Source of the DNA: Escherichia coli
GTDB taxonomy: Bacteria; Pseudomonadota; Gammaproteobacteria; Enterobacterales; Enterobacteriaceae
Strand: one strand, 5' to 3'
DNA: 64,000 nt
Assembly (NCBI RefSeq): GCF_045037415.1
Contig: NZ_CP173438.1
Of this stretch, positions 864-30,194 are shown piece after piece (position 1 is the stretch's first letter; each line of letters starts with the position of its first letter). Under the pieces are notes generated by a model, which ran no database searches, was not told the origin of the DNA, and saw only the letters and a program-made list of their open reading frames with translations. Both the position numbers and the translations under genes were made by a program.

Positions 864-916
864 TCCAACTTTCATTCGAAAGTATTTTAATGTTTGAACG
901 AAACAGAGAGGCAACT

Positions 917-1816
917 ATGATTTTCAATATTCAACGCTACTCGACCCATGATGGCCCCGGTATCCGCACGGTCGTATTTCTTAAAGGCTGTTCGCTGGGC
1001 TGCCGCTGGTGTCAGAACCCGGAAAGCCGCGCCCGCACGCAGGATCTGCTGTATGACCCACGACTCTGTCTGGAAGGCTGTGAGCTGTGCGCTAAGACCG
1101 CACCGGAAGTGATTGAGCGCGCGTTGAATGGTTTGCTTATTCATCGGGAAAAGTTAACCCCGGAGCATTTTACGGCGCTAACCGACTGCTGCCCGACACA
1201 GGCGTTAACCGTGTGTGGTGAAGTGAAAAGCGTTGAGGAGATCATGGCAACCGTTTTGCGCGATAAACCGTTTTACGATCGCAGCGGCGGCGGCTTAACA
1301 CTTTCTGGCGGAGAACCCTTTATGCAGCCGGAAATGGCGACAGCGCTACTGCAAGCCAGCCACGAAGCCGGTATTCATACTGCGGTAGAAACCTGTCTGC
1401 ATGTGCCGTGGAAATATATCGCCCCTTCTCTGTCCTATATTGATCTGTTTCTTGCCGATTTAAAACACGTTGCCGACGCGCCGTTTAAACAGTGGACCGA
1501 CGGTAACGCCGCCAGGGTGCTGGATAATCTGAAAAAACTCGCCGCAGCGGGCAAAAAAATCATTATCCGCGTGCCACTGATTCAGGGCTTTAATGCCGAC
1601 GAAACCTCTGTGAAAGCCATTACCGATTTTGCCGCCGACGAGCTGCACGTTAGCGAAATTCATTTCCTGCCCTACCACACGCTGGGCATCAACAAATATC
1701 ACTTACTTAATCTGCCCTATGACGCCCCGGAAAAACCGCTTGATGCGCCAGAACTGCTCGACTTTGCCCAGCAGTATGCCTGCCAGAAAGGGTTAACCGC
1801 GACCTTACGAGGATAA
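917..1816 (+). CDS. ybiY: glycyl-radical enzyme activating protein (PflE-like radical SAM activase)
   Basis: radical-SAM CxxxCxxC motif ([11 protein letters not shown]) plus an extra Cys-rich ferredoxin-like segment (CLEGCELC...[11 protein letters not shown]); start at 917 preferred over 890 because of the agagagg RBS. Confidence 0.88.
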
Positions 1817-1821
1817 CAACC

Positions 1822-4254
1822 ATGACCACACTGAAACTGGACACGCTCAGCGATCGCATTAAAGCGCACAAAAATGCGCTGGTGCATATTGTGAAACCGC
1901 CGGTCTGTACCGAGCGCGCGCAGCACTATACCGAGATGTATCAACAACATCTCGATAAGCCGATCCCGGTACGTCGCGCGCTGGCACTGGCGCATCACCT
2001 GGCGAATCGCACCATCTGGATCAAACATGATGAATTGATCATTGGCAACCAGGCAAGCGAAGTTCGCGCCGCGCCGATCTTCCCGGAATATACCGTCTCC
2101 TGGATCGAAAAAGAGATTGATGATCTGGCAGATCGTCCCGGTGCTGGTTTTGCGGTGAGTGAAGAGAACAAACGCGTTCTGCATGAAGTGTGCCCGTGGT
2201 GGCGCGGTCAGACCGTACAGGATCGCTGCTACGGCATGTTTACCGATGAGCAAAAAGGTCTGCTGGCGACCGGCATCATTAAAGCGGAGGGCAATATGAC
2301 CTCCGGCGATGCGCACCTGGCGGTCAATTTCCCGCTACTGCTGGAAAAAGGTCTTGATGGTCTGCGTGAGAAAGTGGCGGAACGTCGCTCGCGCATCAAT
2401 CTGACGGTTCTGGAAGATCTGCACGGCGAGCAATTCCTGAAAGCGATTGATATCGTGCTGGTGGCAGTCAGTGAACACATTGAACGTTTCGCTGCCCTGG
2501 CGCGTGAAATGGCCGCGACCGAAACCCGCGAAAGCCGTCGCGATGAACTGCTGACGATAGCAGAAAACTGCGATCTTATCGCCCACCAGCCGCCGCAGAC
2601 TTTCTGGCAGGCGCTGCAACTGTGTTACTTCATCCAGTTGATTTTGCAGATTGAATCTAACGGTCACTCGGTATCGTTTGGTCGTATGGACCAGTATCTC
2701 TATCCATACTATCGCCGTGACGTTGAACTGAACCAGACACTGGATCGCGAACACGCCATCGAGATGCTGCATAGCTGCTGGTTGAAATTGCTGGAAGTGA
2801 ACAAAATCCGCTCCGGCTCACACTCAAAAGCCTCTGCGGGAAGTCCGCTGTATCAGAACGTCACCATTGGCGGGCAAAATCTGGTTGATGGTCAACCGAT
2901 GGACGCGGTAAATCCACTCTCTTATGCGATCCTCGAATCTTGCGGTCGCCTGCGTTCGACTCAGCCTAACCTCAGCGTGCGTTACCATGCGGGTATGAGT
3001 AACGATTTCCTCGACGCCTGTGTTCAGGTGATCCGCTGCGGCTTCGGGATGCCGGCGTTCAACAACGACGAAATCGTCATCCCGGAATTTATTAAACTCG
3101 GTATTGAACCGCAGGACGCTTACGACTACGCAGCAATTGGTTGTATCGAAACCGCCGTCGGTGGCAAATGGGGCTATCGCTGTACCGGCATGAGCTTTAT
3201 CAACTTCGCCCGCGTGATGCTGGCGGCGCTGGAAGGCGGTCGTGATGCCACCAGCGGCAAAGTGTTCCTGCCACAAGAAAAAGCGTTGTCAGCGGGTAAC
3301 TTCAACAACTTCGATGAAGTAATGGACGCATGGGATACGCAAATCCGTTACTACACGCGTAAATCAATCGAAATCGAATATGTCGTCGACACCATGCTGG
3401 AAGAGAACGTACACGATATTCTCTGCTCGGCGCTGGTCGATGACTGTATTGAGCGAGCGAAAAGTATTAAGCAAGGCGGCGCGAAATATGACTGGGTTTC
3501 TGGCCTGCAGGTCGGCATTGCTAACCTCGGCAACAGCCTGGCGGCAGTGAAGAAACTGGTATTTGAACAGGGCGCGATTGGTCAGCAACAGCTGGCTGCC
3601 GCACTGGCGGATGACTTCGACGGTCTGACTCACGAGCAGCTGCGTCAGCGGCTGATTAACGGTGCGCCTAAGTACGGCAACGACGATGATACTGTCGATA
3701 CGCTGCTGGCTCGCGCTTATCAGACCTATATCGACGAACTAAAACAGTACCATAACCCACGCTACGGTCGTGGTCCGGTTGGCGGCAACTATTACGCGGG
3801 TACGTCGTCTATCTCCGCTAACGTACCCTTTGGCGCGCAGACTATGGCAACACCGGACGGGCGTAAAGCGCATACCCCGCTGGCAGAAGGCGCTAGTCCG
3901 GCCTCCGGTACTGACCATCTCGGCCCAACGGCGGTCATTGGCTCAGTAGGTAAACTGCCTACGGCCGCGATTCTCGGCGGCGTGCTGCTCAACCAGAAAC
4001 TGAATCCAGCAACGCTGGAGAACGAATCTGACAAGCAGAAACTGATGATCCTGCTGCGCACCTTCTTTGAAGTGCATAAAGGCTGGCATATTCAGTACAA
4101 CATCGTTTCCCGCGAGACGCTGCTGGAGGCGAAAAAACATCCGGATCAGTATCGCGATCTGGTAGTGCGCGTCGCGGGCTATTCCGCCTTCTTCACCGCG
4201 CTCTCTCCAGACGCTCAGGACGATATCATCGCCCGTACTGAACATATGCTGTAA
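1822..4254 (+). CDS. ybiW: glycyl radical enzyme, PFL-like (PflF), substrate unknown
   Basis: 810 aa; C-terminal glycine-radical motif RVAGYSAFF; single active-site Cys in GCIET; immediately downstream of its activase. Confidence 0.92.
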   Translation: MTTLKLDTLSDRIKAHKNALVHIVKPPVCTERAQHYTEMYQQHLDKPIPVRRALALAHHLANRTIWIKHDELIIGNQASEVRAAPIFPEYTVSWIEKEIDDLADRPGAGFAVSEENKRVLHEVCPWWRGQTVQDRCYGMFTDEQKGLLATGIIKAEGNMTSGDAHLAVNFPLLLEKGLDGLREKVAERRSRINLTVLEDLHGEQFLKAIDIVLVAVSEHIERFAALAREMAATETRESRRDELLTIAENCDLIAHQPPQTFWQALQLCYFIQLILQIESNGHSVSFGRMDQYLYPYYRRDVELNQTLDREHAIEMLHSCWLKLLEVNKIRSGSHSKASAGSPLYQNVTIGGQNLVDGQPMDAVNPLSYAILESCGRLRSTQPNLSVRYHAGMSNDFLDACVQVIRCGFGMPAFNNDEIVIPEFIKLGIEPQDAYDYAAIGCIETAVGGKWGYRCTGMSFINFARVMLAALEGGRDATSGKVFLPQEKALSAGNFNNFDEVMDAWDTQIRYYTRKSIEIEYVVDTMLEENVHDILCSALVDDCIERAKSIKQGGAKYDWVSGLQVGIANLGNSLAAVKKLVFEQGAIGQQQLAAALADDFDGLTHEQLRQRLINGAPKYGNDDDTVDTLLARAYQTYIDELKQYHNPRYGRGPVGGNYYAGTSSISANVPFGAQTMATPDGRKAHTPLAEGASPASGTDHLGPTAVIGSVGKLPTAAILGGVLLNQKLNPATLENESDKQKLMILLRTFFEVHKGWHIQYNIVSRETLLEAKKHPDQYRDLVVRVAGYSAFFTALSPDAQDDIIARTEHML

Positions 4255-4399: not shown

Positions 4400-5215
4400 A
4401 TGAGCGTAAAAGTTATCGTCACAGACATGGACGGTACTTTTCTTAACGACGCCAAAACGTACAACCAACCACGTTTTATGGCGCAATATCAGGAACTGAA
4501 AAAGCGCGGCATTGAGTTCGTTGTCGCCAGCGGTAATCAGTATTACCAGCTTATTTCGTTCTTTCCTGAGCTAAAGGATGAGATCTCTTTTGTCGCGGAA
4601 AACGGCGCACTGGTTTACGAACATGGCAAGCAGTTGTTCCACGGCGAACTGACCCGACATGAATCGCGGATTGTTATTGGCGAGTTGCTAAAAGATAAGC
4701 AACTCAATTTTGTCGCCTGCGGTCTGCAAAGTGCATATGTCAGCGAAAATGCCCCCGAAGCATTCGTCGCACTGATGGCAAAACACTACCATCGCCTGAA
4801 ACCTGTAAAAGATTATCAGGAGATTGACGACGTACTGTTCAAGTTTTCGCTCAACCTGCCGGATGAACAAATCCCGTTAGTGATCGACAAACTGCACATA
4901 ACGCTGGATGGCATTATGAAACCCGTCACCAGTGGTTTTGGCTTTATCGACTTGATTATTCCCGGTCTACATAAAGCAAACGGTATTTCGCGGTTACTGA
5001 AACGCTGGGATCTGTCACCGCAAAATGTGGTAGCGATTGGCGACAGCGGTAACGATGCGGAGATGCTGAAAATGGCGCGTTATTCCTTTGCGATGAGCAA
5101 TGCTGCGGAAAACATTAAACAAATCGCCCGTTACGCTACCGATGATAATAATCATGAAGGCGCGCTGAATGTGATTCAGGCGGTGCTGGAAAATAAACCG
5201 CCGTTTAATCTTTGA
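4400..5215 (+). CDS. ybiV: HAD-family sugar phosphatase
   Basis: 271 aa; N-terminal DxDGT motif ([11 protein letters not shown]); Cof-type HAD. Confidence 0.9.
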
Positions 5216-5257
5216 TTATCACCAATTCAGTTTATTGAGAAAGTGCATGTCATTATA

Positions 5258-5405
5258 CCGGATACGGCGTGACCGCCTTATTTGGCATACAAAATCATGA
5301 AAATTCAATATATTGCGATACACTACCAGGCCTGATAAGCGTAGCGCACCAGGCAATCTTGCGTTTGTCATCAGTTTCAGTAGCCCTGACCATATCAGGG
5401 CTACT
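5258..5405. repeat. REP/BIME-type composite extragenic palindrome (copy A)
   Basis: REP-like palindromes (gccggatacggcg...cgccttat; aggcctgataagcgtagcgcaccaggca) around a shared core caatatattgc...ttgtcatcagt; homologous to 30051-30194. Confidence 0.7.
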
Positions 5406-5414
5406 GATAATAAC

Positions 5415-7007
5415 TTACTCGATCCCTTTACTACGCAGGTAATCTTCGTAATTACCGCTAAAGTCGATCACGCGTTCCGGGGTGATTTCCAGAATACGGG
5501 TCGCCAGGGAGCTTACAAACTCACGGTCGTGAGAAACAAAGATCAGCGTGCCCTGATACAGTTCCAGCGCCATGTTCAGCGACTCAATGGATTCCATATC
5601 CAGGTGGTTGGTCGGTTCGTCCATGATCAGAATGTTCGGCTTCTGCATCATTAACTTACCAAACAGCATCCGCCCTTTTTCCCCACCGGAAAGCACTTTA
5701 GCTGGCTTTTTGATGTCGTCCTGGCTGAACAGCAAACGACCGAGAATACTGCGCACCGCCTGCTCGTCATCGCCTTCCTGCTTCCACTGACTCATCCATT
5801 CGAACACGGTCAGATCATTTTCAAACTCATATTCGTGGTCCTGAGCGTAGTAACCAATGCGCGCGTTTTCAGACCATTTTACGGTGCCGCTGTCCGGTTG
5901 CAGATCGCCCACCAGCGTTTTCAGCAGCGTTGATTTACCGACGCCGTTGGTACCCAGTACCGCCAGTTTTTCACCCACTTCCAGCAGCAGGTTGAGATTT
6001 TTAAACAGTGGACCGTTATCAAACCCTTTAGTCAGACCTTCCACTTCTAGCGCGTTACGGAACAGTTTCTTATCCTGTTCAAAACGGATGAACGGGTTCT
6101 GACGGCTGGAAGCTTTCACCTCTTCCAGTTTGATTTTATCAATCTGGCGCGCGCGCGAAGTTGCCTGGCGAGATTTCGAGGCGTTGGCGCTAAAGCGGCT
6201 AACGAAAGATTGCAACTCAGCAATCTGCGCTTTCTTCTTCGCGTTATCAGCCAGCAGACGTTCACGCGCCTGAGTCGCCGCCGTCATGTACTCATCGTAG
6301 TTGCCCGGATAAACGCGCAGCTCGCCGTAATCCAGATCCGCCATGTGGGTACAAACCATGTTAAGGAAGTGACGGTCGTGCGAGATGATGATCATGGTGC
6401 TGTCACGCTCGTTCAGCACCTGTTCCAGCCAGCGAATGGTGTCGATATCGAGGTTGTTGGTCGGTTCGTCGAGCAGGAGAATGTCGGGATCAGCAAACAG
6501 CGCCTGAGCCAGCAGCACACGCAGCTTCCAGCCAGGAGCAACTTCACTCATCGGGCCGTAGTGCTGTTCCACTGGAATTCCCACGCCAAGCAACAGTTCA
6601 CCAGCGCGAGCTTCCGCAGAGTAACCGTCCATTTCGCCGTATTTCACTTCCAGATCGGCCACTTTATAGCCGTCTTCTTCACTCATTTCCGGCAAAGCAT
6701 AGATGCGGTCACGCTCCTGCTTCACTTCCCACAACTCTTTATGCCCCATGATCACCGTATCCAGCACAGTGAACTCTTCAAAGGCAAACTGATCCTGACG
6801 CAGCTTACCAATGCGTTCGTTGGGATCGAGGGAAACGTTACCCAACGTCGGCTCTAAGTCGCCGCCGAGGATCTTCATAAAGGTGGATTTACCACTACCG
6901 TTCGCGCCAATCAGGCCGTAACGGTTGCCGCCGCCGAATTTGACGGAAATGTTTTCAAACAACGGCTTACTGCCGAACTGCATGGTGACGTTACTGGAAA
7001 CTAACAC
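5415..7007 (-). CDS. ybiT: ABC-F family ATPase (tandem ABC domains, no permease)
   Basis: 530 aa; two Walker A motifs GANGSGKST and GTNGVGKST. Confidence 0.92.
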
Positions 7008-7225: not shown

Positions 7226-8146
7226 ATGAATATGAAATTGAAAACATTATTCGCAGCGGCCTTCGCTGTTGTCGGCTTTTGCAGTACCGCCTCTGCGGTA
7301 ACTTATCCTCTGCCAACCGACGGGAGTCGCCTGGTTGGTCAGAATCAGGTGATCACCATTCCTGAAGGTAACACTCAGCCGCTGGAGTATTTTGCCGCCG
7401 AGTACCAGATGGGACTTTCCAATATGATGGAAGCGAACCCGGGTGTGGATACCTTCCTGCCGAAAGGCGGTACTGTACTGAACATTCCGCAGCAGCTGAT
7501 CCTGCCGGATACCGTTCATGAAGGCATCGTCATTAACAGTGCAGAGATGCGTCTGTATTACTATCCGAAAGGGACCAACACCGTTATCGTGCTGCCGATC
7601 GGCATTGGTCAGTTAGGCAAAGACACGCCTATCAACTGGACCACCAAAGTTGAGCGTAAAAAAGCAGGCCCGACCTGGACGCCGACCGCTAAAATGCACG
7701 CAGAGTACCGCGCTGCGGGCGAACCGCTTCCGGCGGTCGTTCCGGCTGGTCCGGATAACCCGATGGGGCTGTATGCACTCTACATCGGTCGCCTGTACGC
7801 TATCCATGGCACCAACGCCAACTTCGGTATCGGCCTGCGTGTAAGTCATGGTTGTGTGCGTCTGCGTAACGAAGACATCAAATTCCTGTTCGAGAAAGTA
7901 CCGGTCGGTACCCGCGTACAGTTTATTGATGAGCCGGTAAAAGCGACCACCGAGCCAGACGGCAGCCGTTATATTGAAGTCCATAACCCGCTGTCTACCA
8001 CCGAAGCCCAGTTTGAAGGTCAGGAAATTGTGCCAATTACCCTGACGAAGAGCGTGCAGACAGTGACCGGTCAGCCAGATGTTGACCAGGTTGTTCTGGA
8101 TGAAGCGATCAAAAATCGTTCCGGGATGCCGGTTCGTCTGAATTAA
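7226..8146 (+). CDS. ldtB: L,D-transpeptidase (Lpp-to-peptidoglycan linkage)
   Basis: 306 aa; signal peptide; YkuD catalytic motif SHGCVRL. Confidence 0.92.
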
Positions 8147-8203: not shown

Positions 8204-9322
8204 TTATCCCGCCGGGATCATAACCAACAAAACATATCCCACCAGCGCCGCCCACAACAGCATCGGTATCGAATAAAGATGAAAACGCCACCAGATACGG
8301 CGATCGTTCGCCATCCGTAACGCAATCAAATTTGCCAGCGATCCGGGTAATAAACCAAAGCCACCTACGTTTACCGCCCATGCCAGTAATAAAGACGGTG
8401 GCACATAATTGAGCAGCAAAATGGTACTCGGCACGTTACTGATCACCTGCGATAAACCGATCGCCGTTAGCCATAATCCGGGTTCGGATAAATGACTCAC
8501 GTTACTTAACACCCCCTGCAAAACTGGCAGTTGGGTTAGTAAATGGACGTCGATAAACATCGCCATAAACACCAGCAGCAGCGTCCAGTCCACACTGAGC
8601 ACCACGCGACGCGCCAGCAGCGCAAAGCCCGCCGCCACAATCACCAGTCCCCACAGCTCTTGTTTTAACTCCAGCGCCGTCAGAAAGACGATATACAGCC
8701 CCAGACAACTCCACACCAGCCGCGGTTTCCACTCCGGCGTTTGCCCTCCTGTATGGTACTGCAGCGCCTTTCCAGGGAAACAACACCAGCACAACAGCAG
8801 GAGTGTCAGCATCATTGCGCCAGCCAGCGGTGCCATTTGGGCAATAAATCCGGCAAACGAAAGACCAGAACGTCCCCAGATAAGAATATTTTGCGGGTTG
8901 CCAATTGGCGTCAGTAGCGAACCAGCATTGACTGCCAGCGCCTCAAAAATAATCAGCCGATTAACCGGGATCTCACACAGTCTTTTTAGCGTGATAGTCA
9001 GCGGAACAACTATAAACAGCGCGACATCGTTGGTCAGAAAGGTAGAAAGCAGCGCCGCCGCCAGTACCATAAACATCGCCAGCCGACGCTCCGTAGCAAA
9101 ACGGCGCACCATTTTGCGCCCCAGCACATCAAAATAACCGCTTAACTCGACACCTTTAGTCAGCAGCATCAGGCCGCTTAAGGTGATGATGGTGTGCCAG
9201 TCGATAGCAGCAGGCCAGGATTTCGGTGCAAAGGGAACGAAAAAACTTAATCCGATGCCAACAAGAATTAATAACTGAAAAAAACGATCGCCTTGCAGCG
9301 TGCGTAAAAAAGGCAGGCTCAT
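8204..9322 (-). CDS. ybiR: inner-membrane transporter (ArsB/NhaD-like permease)
   Basis: 372 aa multi-pass hydrophobic protein; start overlaps the mntR stop (ATGA), so co-transcribed with mntR. Confidence 0.88.
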
Positions 9323-29968: not shown

Positions 29969-30050
29969 CGCATCGGGTGGCTTGTGGGCGTTAAAACAGA
30001 GAAATCTTTTTGCCGCGCTCGCAAATGGCTGACAAGTGCTTGTTGTGAAA

Positions 30051-30194
30051 TGCCGGATGCGGCGCGAGCGCCTTATCCGGCCTACAAAAACATGCACATT
30101 CAATATATTGCAGAGTTCACGTAGGCCTGATAAGCGTAGCGTATCAGGCAGTTTTGTGTTTGTCATCAGTCTCATGCCGGGCATAGCCCGGCAT
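30051..30194. repeat. REP/BIME-type composite extragenic palindrome (copy B)
   Basis: tgccggatgcggcgcgagcgccttatccggcctac ... aggcctgataagcgtagcgtatcaggca ... tgccgggcatagcccggca; same core as copy A. Confidence 0.75.

Follow-up and report, generated by a model that had tools for sequence, protein, structure and literature searches.

In Escherichia coli K-12, the genes ybiV and ybiT lie on either side of ybiU, a gene of 1266 bp. In the stretch of E. coli DNA analysed here (64 kb, hereafter the window), ybiV and ybiT are convergent, and the spacer between them is exactly 199 bp (5216-5414). An earlier note on this DNA gave the K-12 order as ybiV-ybiU-ybiT, correctly as it turned out, and proposed that ybiU is absent here, that a BIME-type repeat occupies its position, and that the difference is specific to the strain. 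The locus raises three questions: whether ybiU is truly missing, how widespread and how old its absence is, and whether the repeat had any part in it.

The ybiV-ybiT interval and its spacer

The gene calls around the spacer (Table 1) are backed by the RefSeq annotation of strain SK1144, whose record is 100% identical to the window across 4400-7007. A plus-strand ORF at 5313-5654 (113 amino acids, with a TTG start) was discarded as spurious, as it runs antisense over the 3′ end of ybiT and the repeat. In the ATCC 25922 record NZ_CP037449.1 ybiT is annotated as frameshifted, which is likely an assembly error; the gene is intact in SK1144 and MS1170, which carry the same ybiV-ybiT junction.

Table 1. 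Genes flanking the ybiV-ybiT spacer and elements within it (window coordinates)
Feature	Position	Strand	Evidence or remark
ybiY	890-1816	+	ORF list and NCBIfam scans
ybiW	1822-4254	+	ORF list and NCBIfam scans
ybiV, Cof-type HAD-IIB sugar phosphatase, 271 aa	4400-5215	+	NCBIfam TIGR00099, E = 2.8e-65; 'sugar-phosphatase YbiV' in the identical SK1144 record
Divergent ybiV tail, last 8 codons and stop (ENKPPFNL* vs DNTSPFNS*)	5191-5215	+	Left edge of the haplotype difference
Unique linker, ybiV stop to repeat (17 nt)	5216-5232		5216-5256 collinear with K-12 sequence downstream of ybiU, at chance level
Single degenerate BIME-1-like element (142 nt)	5233-5374		Aligns with other copies
Flank motif, left part of the element	from 5233
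REP of the element	5257-5290		Own hairpin in MFE fold
Long linker of the element (38 nt)	5291-5328		Core ATTCAATATATTGC at 5303-5316
Inverted REP of the element	5330-5354		Own hairpin in MFE fold
Second flank motif of the element	5355-5374
12-bp stem-loop, starting 9 nt after the ybiT stop	5378-5406	-	Covariation across six haplotypes
ybiT, ABC-F family ATPase, 530 aa	5415-7007	-	NCBIfam NF011646, 1067 bits; RefSeq annotation concordant
ldtB	7226-8146	+	ORF list and NCBIfam scans
ybiR	8204-9322	-	ORF list and NCBIfam scans

The spacer had been described as consisting entirely of REP/BIME-type repeat. The repeat is real, but it covers about 71% of the spacer (5233-5374) and not the whole of it. 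BIME-1 elements consist of a REP and an inverted REP joined by a long, well-conserved L linker, and occur as single copies (PMC3333891). The spacer element resembles BIME-1 (RIP/RIB) in having two inversely oriented REPs, a 38-nt linker with a conserved core, and a single REP-L-iREP unit with no tandem array within the 199 bp. It also has conserved flank motifs and sits between convergent genes. Unlike an intact BIME-1, however, it has a left REP stem substituted at several sites, and it lacks the conserved GTAG 5′ of the REP palindrome and the CTAC on the inverted REP, motifs that are needed by the REP-associated transposase (PMC3333891). The corresponding tetranucleotides are mutated to CCAG (5326-5329) and ATAC (5287-5290), and they are likewise mutated in the copy of E. 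albertii. The loss of both motifs marks the spacer copy as degenerate.

A second BIME-1-like copy is present in the window at about 30035-30170, of which about 135 nt can be aligned with the copy at 5233-5374. The REP pattern and the linker pattern are each found twice in the window, with the second matches near 30100-30150; for neither pattern did any of 100 shuffled sequences yield two matches. The linker core is identical in the spacer, at 30098-30111 and in the K-12 orthologue of the spacer element, and differs by one base in the E. albertii orthologue. GTAG and CTAC are intact in the K-12 orthologue and in the second copy of the window, which also shares the flank motifs of the spacer element. 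This second copy lies between a truncated NADAR-family (ybiA-like) pseudogene and rhlE; the SK1144 annotation gives the NADAR-family gene as missing its N-terminus, and this truncation may be another difference in gene content from K-12.

The spacer as a whole folds far better than shuffled sequences (z = -5.2 and -4.6). In the stem-loop next to ybiT, 97% of the cells in an alignment of six haplotypes can pair, as compared with 26-46% for slid controls, and four of the pairs show compensatory double changes. As an intrinsic terminator the structure has the hairpin but no T run on either strand, and a consensus scan of 5000-5600 for promoters and terminators found nothing. On the strength of this covariation and its position, the stem-loop is likely a 3′-end structure of the ybiT mRNA. 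The only hit in an Rfam scan of 5100-5520 was ES036 (CssrF) at 5291-5333, which scores 21.8 bits against a gathering score of 37.6. We read this sub-threshold hit as repeat-derived similarity and dropped the call of a small RNA on the linker; the hit probably reflects that the family is itself derived from BIMEs.

Absence of ybiU and the frequency of the junction

The K-12-type YbiU protein matches PF07350 (Gig2-like, formerly DUF1479) at 515 bits, and the PDB entries 2dbi, 2dbn and 2csg are labelled 'Hypothetical protein ybiU'. With this protein as query, tblastn across the 64-kb window found nothing (best E = 1.4), and thus no remnant in the spacer either; in the merely 199 bp between ybiV and ybiT there is no PF07350-like ORF. 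Local alignments of 5185-5260 with the 3′ ends of ybiU and the downstream spacers of 12 loci gave chance-level scores throughout. The best-looking of these candidates, a match at 21 of 26 positions to the stop region of a Citrobacter ybiU, was rejected because it is no better than background scores of 14-18. The absence of ybiU that the earlier note proposed is therefore borne out in the window, and the cell presumably lacks YbiU.

The absence is a common one. With 5120-5500 as query, and counting matches at 80% coverage or more, we found the junction in 1,052 of 5,426 complete E. coli genomes (19%), while 4,228 contain ybiU at the same coverage threshold. A difference in gene presence is thus real, but it is not confined to one strain: the ybiU-less junction is a lineage-level haplotype, also in view of the 199-bp spacer that recurs in E. 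albertii (see below). Its carriers include SK1144, NC101, ATCC 25922 and an O25:H4 strain, of which SK1144 and NC101 are both listed as phylogroup B2 (PMC12366417). The presence or absence of ybiU was not a subject of the titles and abstracts found in our literature search on ybiU.

Two ways in which the gap could mislead can be weighed against these counts. That ybiU has moved elsewhere in the source genome, or to a plasmid, is scarcely credible. Five ybiU matches do lie on plasmids, and a few genomes have two or three matching places, yet the gene is essentially single-copy where it is found (4,271 places in 4,249 genomes), and the 4,249 genomes with any match and the 1,052 with the junction do not together exceed 5,426. 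We also searched with a chimeric query, composed of the junction and reverse-complemented 450-nt pieces of both ybiU allele types (see below). All 11 junction genomes sampled, which were drawn evenly down the ranking and some of which are 100% identical over 581 nt, had one matching place each and no ybiU fragment of either type. The intact copy elsewhere that would have undone the reading of absence was thus found neither in the window nor in these genomes. An artefact of assembly, or a collapse at the repeat, has nothing in its favour beyond the presence of the repeat itself and can practically be dismissed, with an identical junction in more than 1,000 independently finished genomes.

The ybiV-ybiT site has at least six structural alleles in E. 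coli: K-12-type ybiU; a ybiU of about 75% DNA identity; ybiU together with a LacI/MFS/GH31 island; a DUF4261 gene; a DUF4261 remnant with a hypothetical gene and DUF6960; and the empty state. The 4,228 genomes counted above include about 159 in which an allele 75-77% identical to K-12-type ybiU occupies the same locus. The island lies between ybiU and ybiT in many ybiU-positive genomes, and 41 genomes (e.g. ATCC 8739) have either the DUF4261 gene or the remnant with its two companions. For about 1,650 genomes, the search did not join the match to ybiV with that to ybiT, which is consistent with larger inserts.

The repeat and the edges of the missing segment

Relative to the ancestral arrangement, about 1.5 kb is missing from the window. 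As compared with K-12, the missing sequence comprises the ancestral tail of ybiV with its hairpin terminator (ccggagcc...gctccggtttt), the spacer from there to ybiU, ybiU itself and about 55 nt beyond it. The left edge lies within ybiV, whose identity to K-12-type ybiV is 98.7% over the first 786 nt but only 67% over the last 30 nt; ten of the 20 mismatches fall within gene positions 792-813. A tail of the ENKPPFNL type is common to the window, the DUF4261 allele, E. albertii and E. whittamii, whereas all other genera have a tail of the D-N-T/A-x-P-F type. Since the tail of other genera reads D-N-T-P-P-F-N-x, that of the window is still recognisable as a ybiV tail, and it is thus a strongly diverged homologue and not a random fusion.

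The right edge is given as a range, roughly 5226-5255, in the linker or just inside the BIME. Homology to K-12 resumes unambiguously at 5255 and plausibly at about 5227. Although 5216-5256 is collinear with the K-12 sequence just after ybiU, 220 of 2,000 shuffles score as high, so this similarity is indistinguishable from chance. The distance from the right breakpoint to the edge of the BIME is thus about 0-30 nt.

Contrary to the earlier note, the repeat does not stand in ybiU's place. By alignment, the BIME and the stem-loop of the spacer are orthologous to those found between ybiU and ybiT in K-12-type strains. Because the same element is already present there next to an intact ybiU, the alignment marks the BIME as a resident bystander, and as neither a scar nor a replacement of the gene. 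In Citrobacter, the ybiU-ybiT spacers contain one to three tandem copies of an element of about 150 nt instead of the BIME. This element resembles ERIC/IRU repeats (…cccgggagcttacataagtaagtgaccggggtgaacag…). The site downstream of ybiT thus seems to have been colonised repeatedly by different small repeats.

Direction and age of the loss

A search with YbiV against one genome per species returned 46 loci, and ybiV-ybiU adjacency was seen in about 38 species from more than 10 enterobacterial genera. The gene immediately after ybiV is ybiU in Citrobacter (many species), Klebsiella, Raoultella, Enterobacter, Lelliottia, Trabulsiella, Pluralibacter, Intestinirhabdus and Huaxiibacter; Salmonella also has ybiV and ybiU side by side, with their order rearranged. 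K-12-type ybiU and the ybiU of Citrobacter are 81-86% identical in DNA, as compared with 85-86% for ybiW (from the window's copy) and 86-88% for ybiT. As the flanking genes have diverged from Citrobacter to a similar degree, vertical descent of K-12-type ybiU fits these values. A recent horizontal transfer from Citrobacter, which the identity of 93-96% between the proteins might have suggested, was rejected, since the DNA identity is no higher than that of ybiW and ybiT. The adjacency in outgroups and the Citrobacter-like divergence thus indicate that ybiU is ancestral and the empty state derived, although the direction of change within the genus rests on these distant outgroups and not on a resolved tree, as the E. 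albertii and E. whittamii representatives also lack ybiU. In Superficieibacter and UBA5654, both Enterobacteriaceae, ybiV adjoins ybiT with no ybiU in between, and ybiW was not found upstream, which suggests independent losses of the gene.

The age of the haplotype follows from E. albertii. Its type strain has a spacer of the same 199 bp, which is 88% identical to that of the window in a gap-free alignment, and the ybiV tails of the two agree at 29 of 30 nt. The spacer has diverged to a similar extent as its flanks, which are 90% (ybiV) and 92% (ybiT) identical between E. albertii and the window. In contrast, identity between the window's spacer and its K-12 orthologue is only 76% (85% over the piece found by megablast), while that of the flanking ybiV and ybiT is 98-99%. 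The same junction, at the same length, in both species shows that ybiU was lost once, long ago. The ybiU-less alleles are, moreover, historically linked, as the window's type of ybiV tail also accompanies the DUF4261 alleles in E. coli and E. whittamii. From these identities, either the ybiU-less and ybiU-bearing haplotypes predate the split between E. coli and E. albertii, or the haplotype passed from one species to the other long ago; both ways, the recombination boundaries lie close against the edges of the cassette.

These results bear on two other accounts of the junction. It could have arisen by a recent, strain-specific deletion through recombination at the BIME, with the repeat as its cause or scar. 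REP and BIME elements are known targets of recombination and of IS insertion (PMC3333891), and no more than about 30 nt separate the right edge from the left end of the BIME unit. However, the junction recurs in the 1,052 genomes and, at 88% identity, in E. albertii; K-12-type strains have no REP in the ybiV tail, the site of the left breakpoint; the BIME is found at the same place in ybiU-positive strains; and the spacer copy lacks the motifs that the transposase requires. As a recent event, such a deletion is very improbable and largely refuted, and we saw no sign that the BIME brought the loss about; given the closeness of the right breakpoint to the edge of the element, a role of the BIME in the original, ancient deletion is possible. 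Somewhat less improbable, though still unlikely to be correct, is the reverse history, in which Escherichia started out without ybiU and most E. coli descend from a lineage that regained it by re-insertion. This would account for the E. albertii and E. whittamii representatives without the gene, and the two ybiU alleles of E. coli are only 75% identical, so that at least one of them was probably imported. Against it, nearly all other Enterobacteriaceae have ybiU next to ybiV; ybiU-positive E. coli have the type of ybiV tail and terminator found in all other genera, with the ybiU-less tail as the odd one out; and K-12-type ybiU has diverged from its Citrobacter counterpart to the same degree as the genes that flank it.

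We thus consider it very probable that the ybiV-ybiT interval of the window represents a ybiU-less haplotype that is old and widespread and derives from an ancestral order of ybiV, terminator, ybiU, BIME-containing spacer and ybiT. In this loss, the ancestral ybiV terminator, ybiU and about 55 nt after it disappeared, while the BIME-1-like element and the ybiT stem-loop were kept. Since then, the haplotype would have been passed on by descent, or transferred by homologous recombination with ybiV and ybiT as anchors, and would now be typical of a large subset of E. coli that includes phylogroup B2. With the hairpin terminator of ybiV gone, transcripts of the two convergent genes would now end within their shared, highly structured 199-bp spacer. 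There, a probable role of the REP hairpins and the covarying stem-loop is that of 3′-end barriers or stabilisers, by analogy with REPs in general, for which such roles are established (PMC3333891).

A bolder extension of this reading, which we regard as rather unlikely, would make the interval a long-lived, multi-allelic cassette site. Its ybiU-less haplotype, having predated or crossed the species boundary, would be a trans-species polymorphism under balancing or niche-specific selection, with boundaries pinned to the last eight codons of ybiV and to the ybiT stem-loop.

In most respects, the feature is an ordinary, already-annotated accessory-gene polymorphism beside a known type of repeat. 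As is usual for presence/absence polymorphisms in a pan-genome, a single gene is missing between conserved core genes in a clade-like subset of strains, and alternative cassettes occur at the site. Unlike the usual case, the haplotype is unusually old and shared with E. albertii, its boundaries are very tight, and it comes with an alternative C-terminal tail of ybiV. Only this age and the multi-allelic nature of the site are mildly notable.

For pan-genome analysis and annotation, ybiU should be regarded as an accessory gene that about one fifth of finished E. coli genomes lack, among them those of extraintestinal and adherent B2 strains. In the strains that lack it, the 199-bp spacer between ybiV and ybiT is a legitimate old haplotype and not an assembly gap, and the BIME within it should not be read as a deletion scar. 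The locus may also offer a small, clean example of an ancient gene-loss haplotype common to E. coli and E. albertii, at a site that has repeatedly swapped small cassettes.
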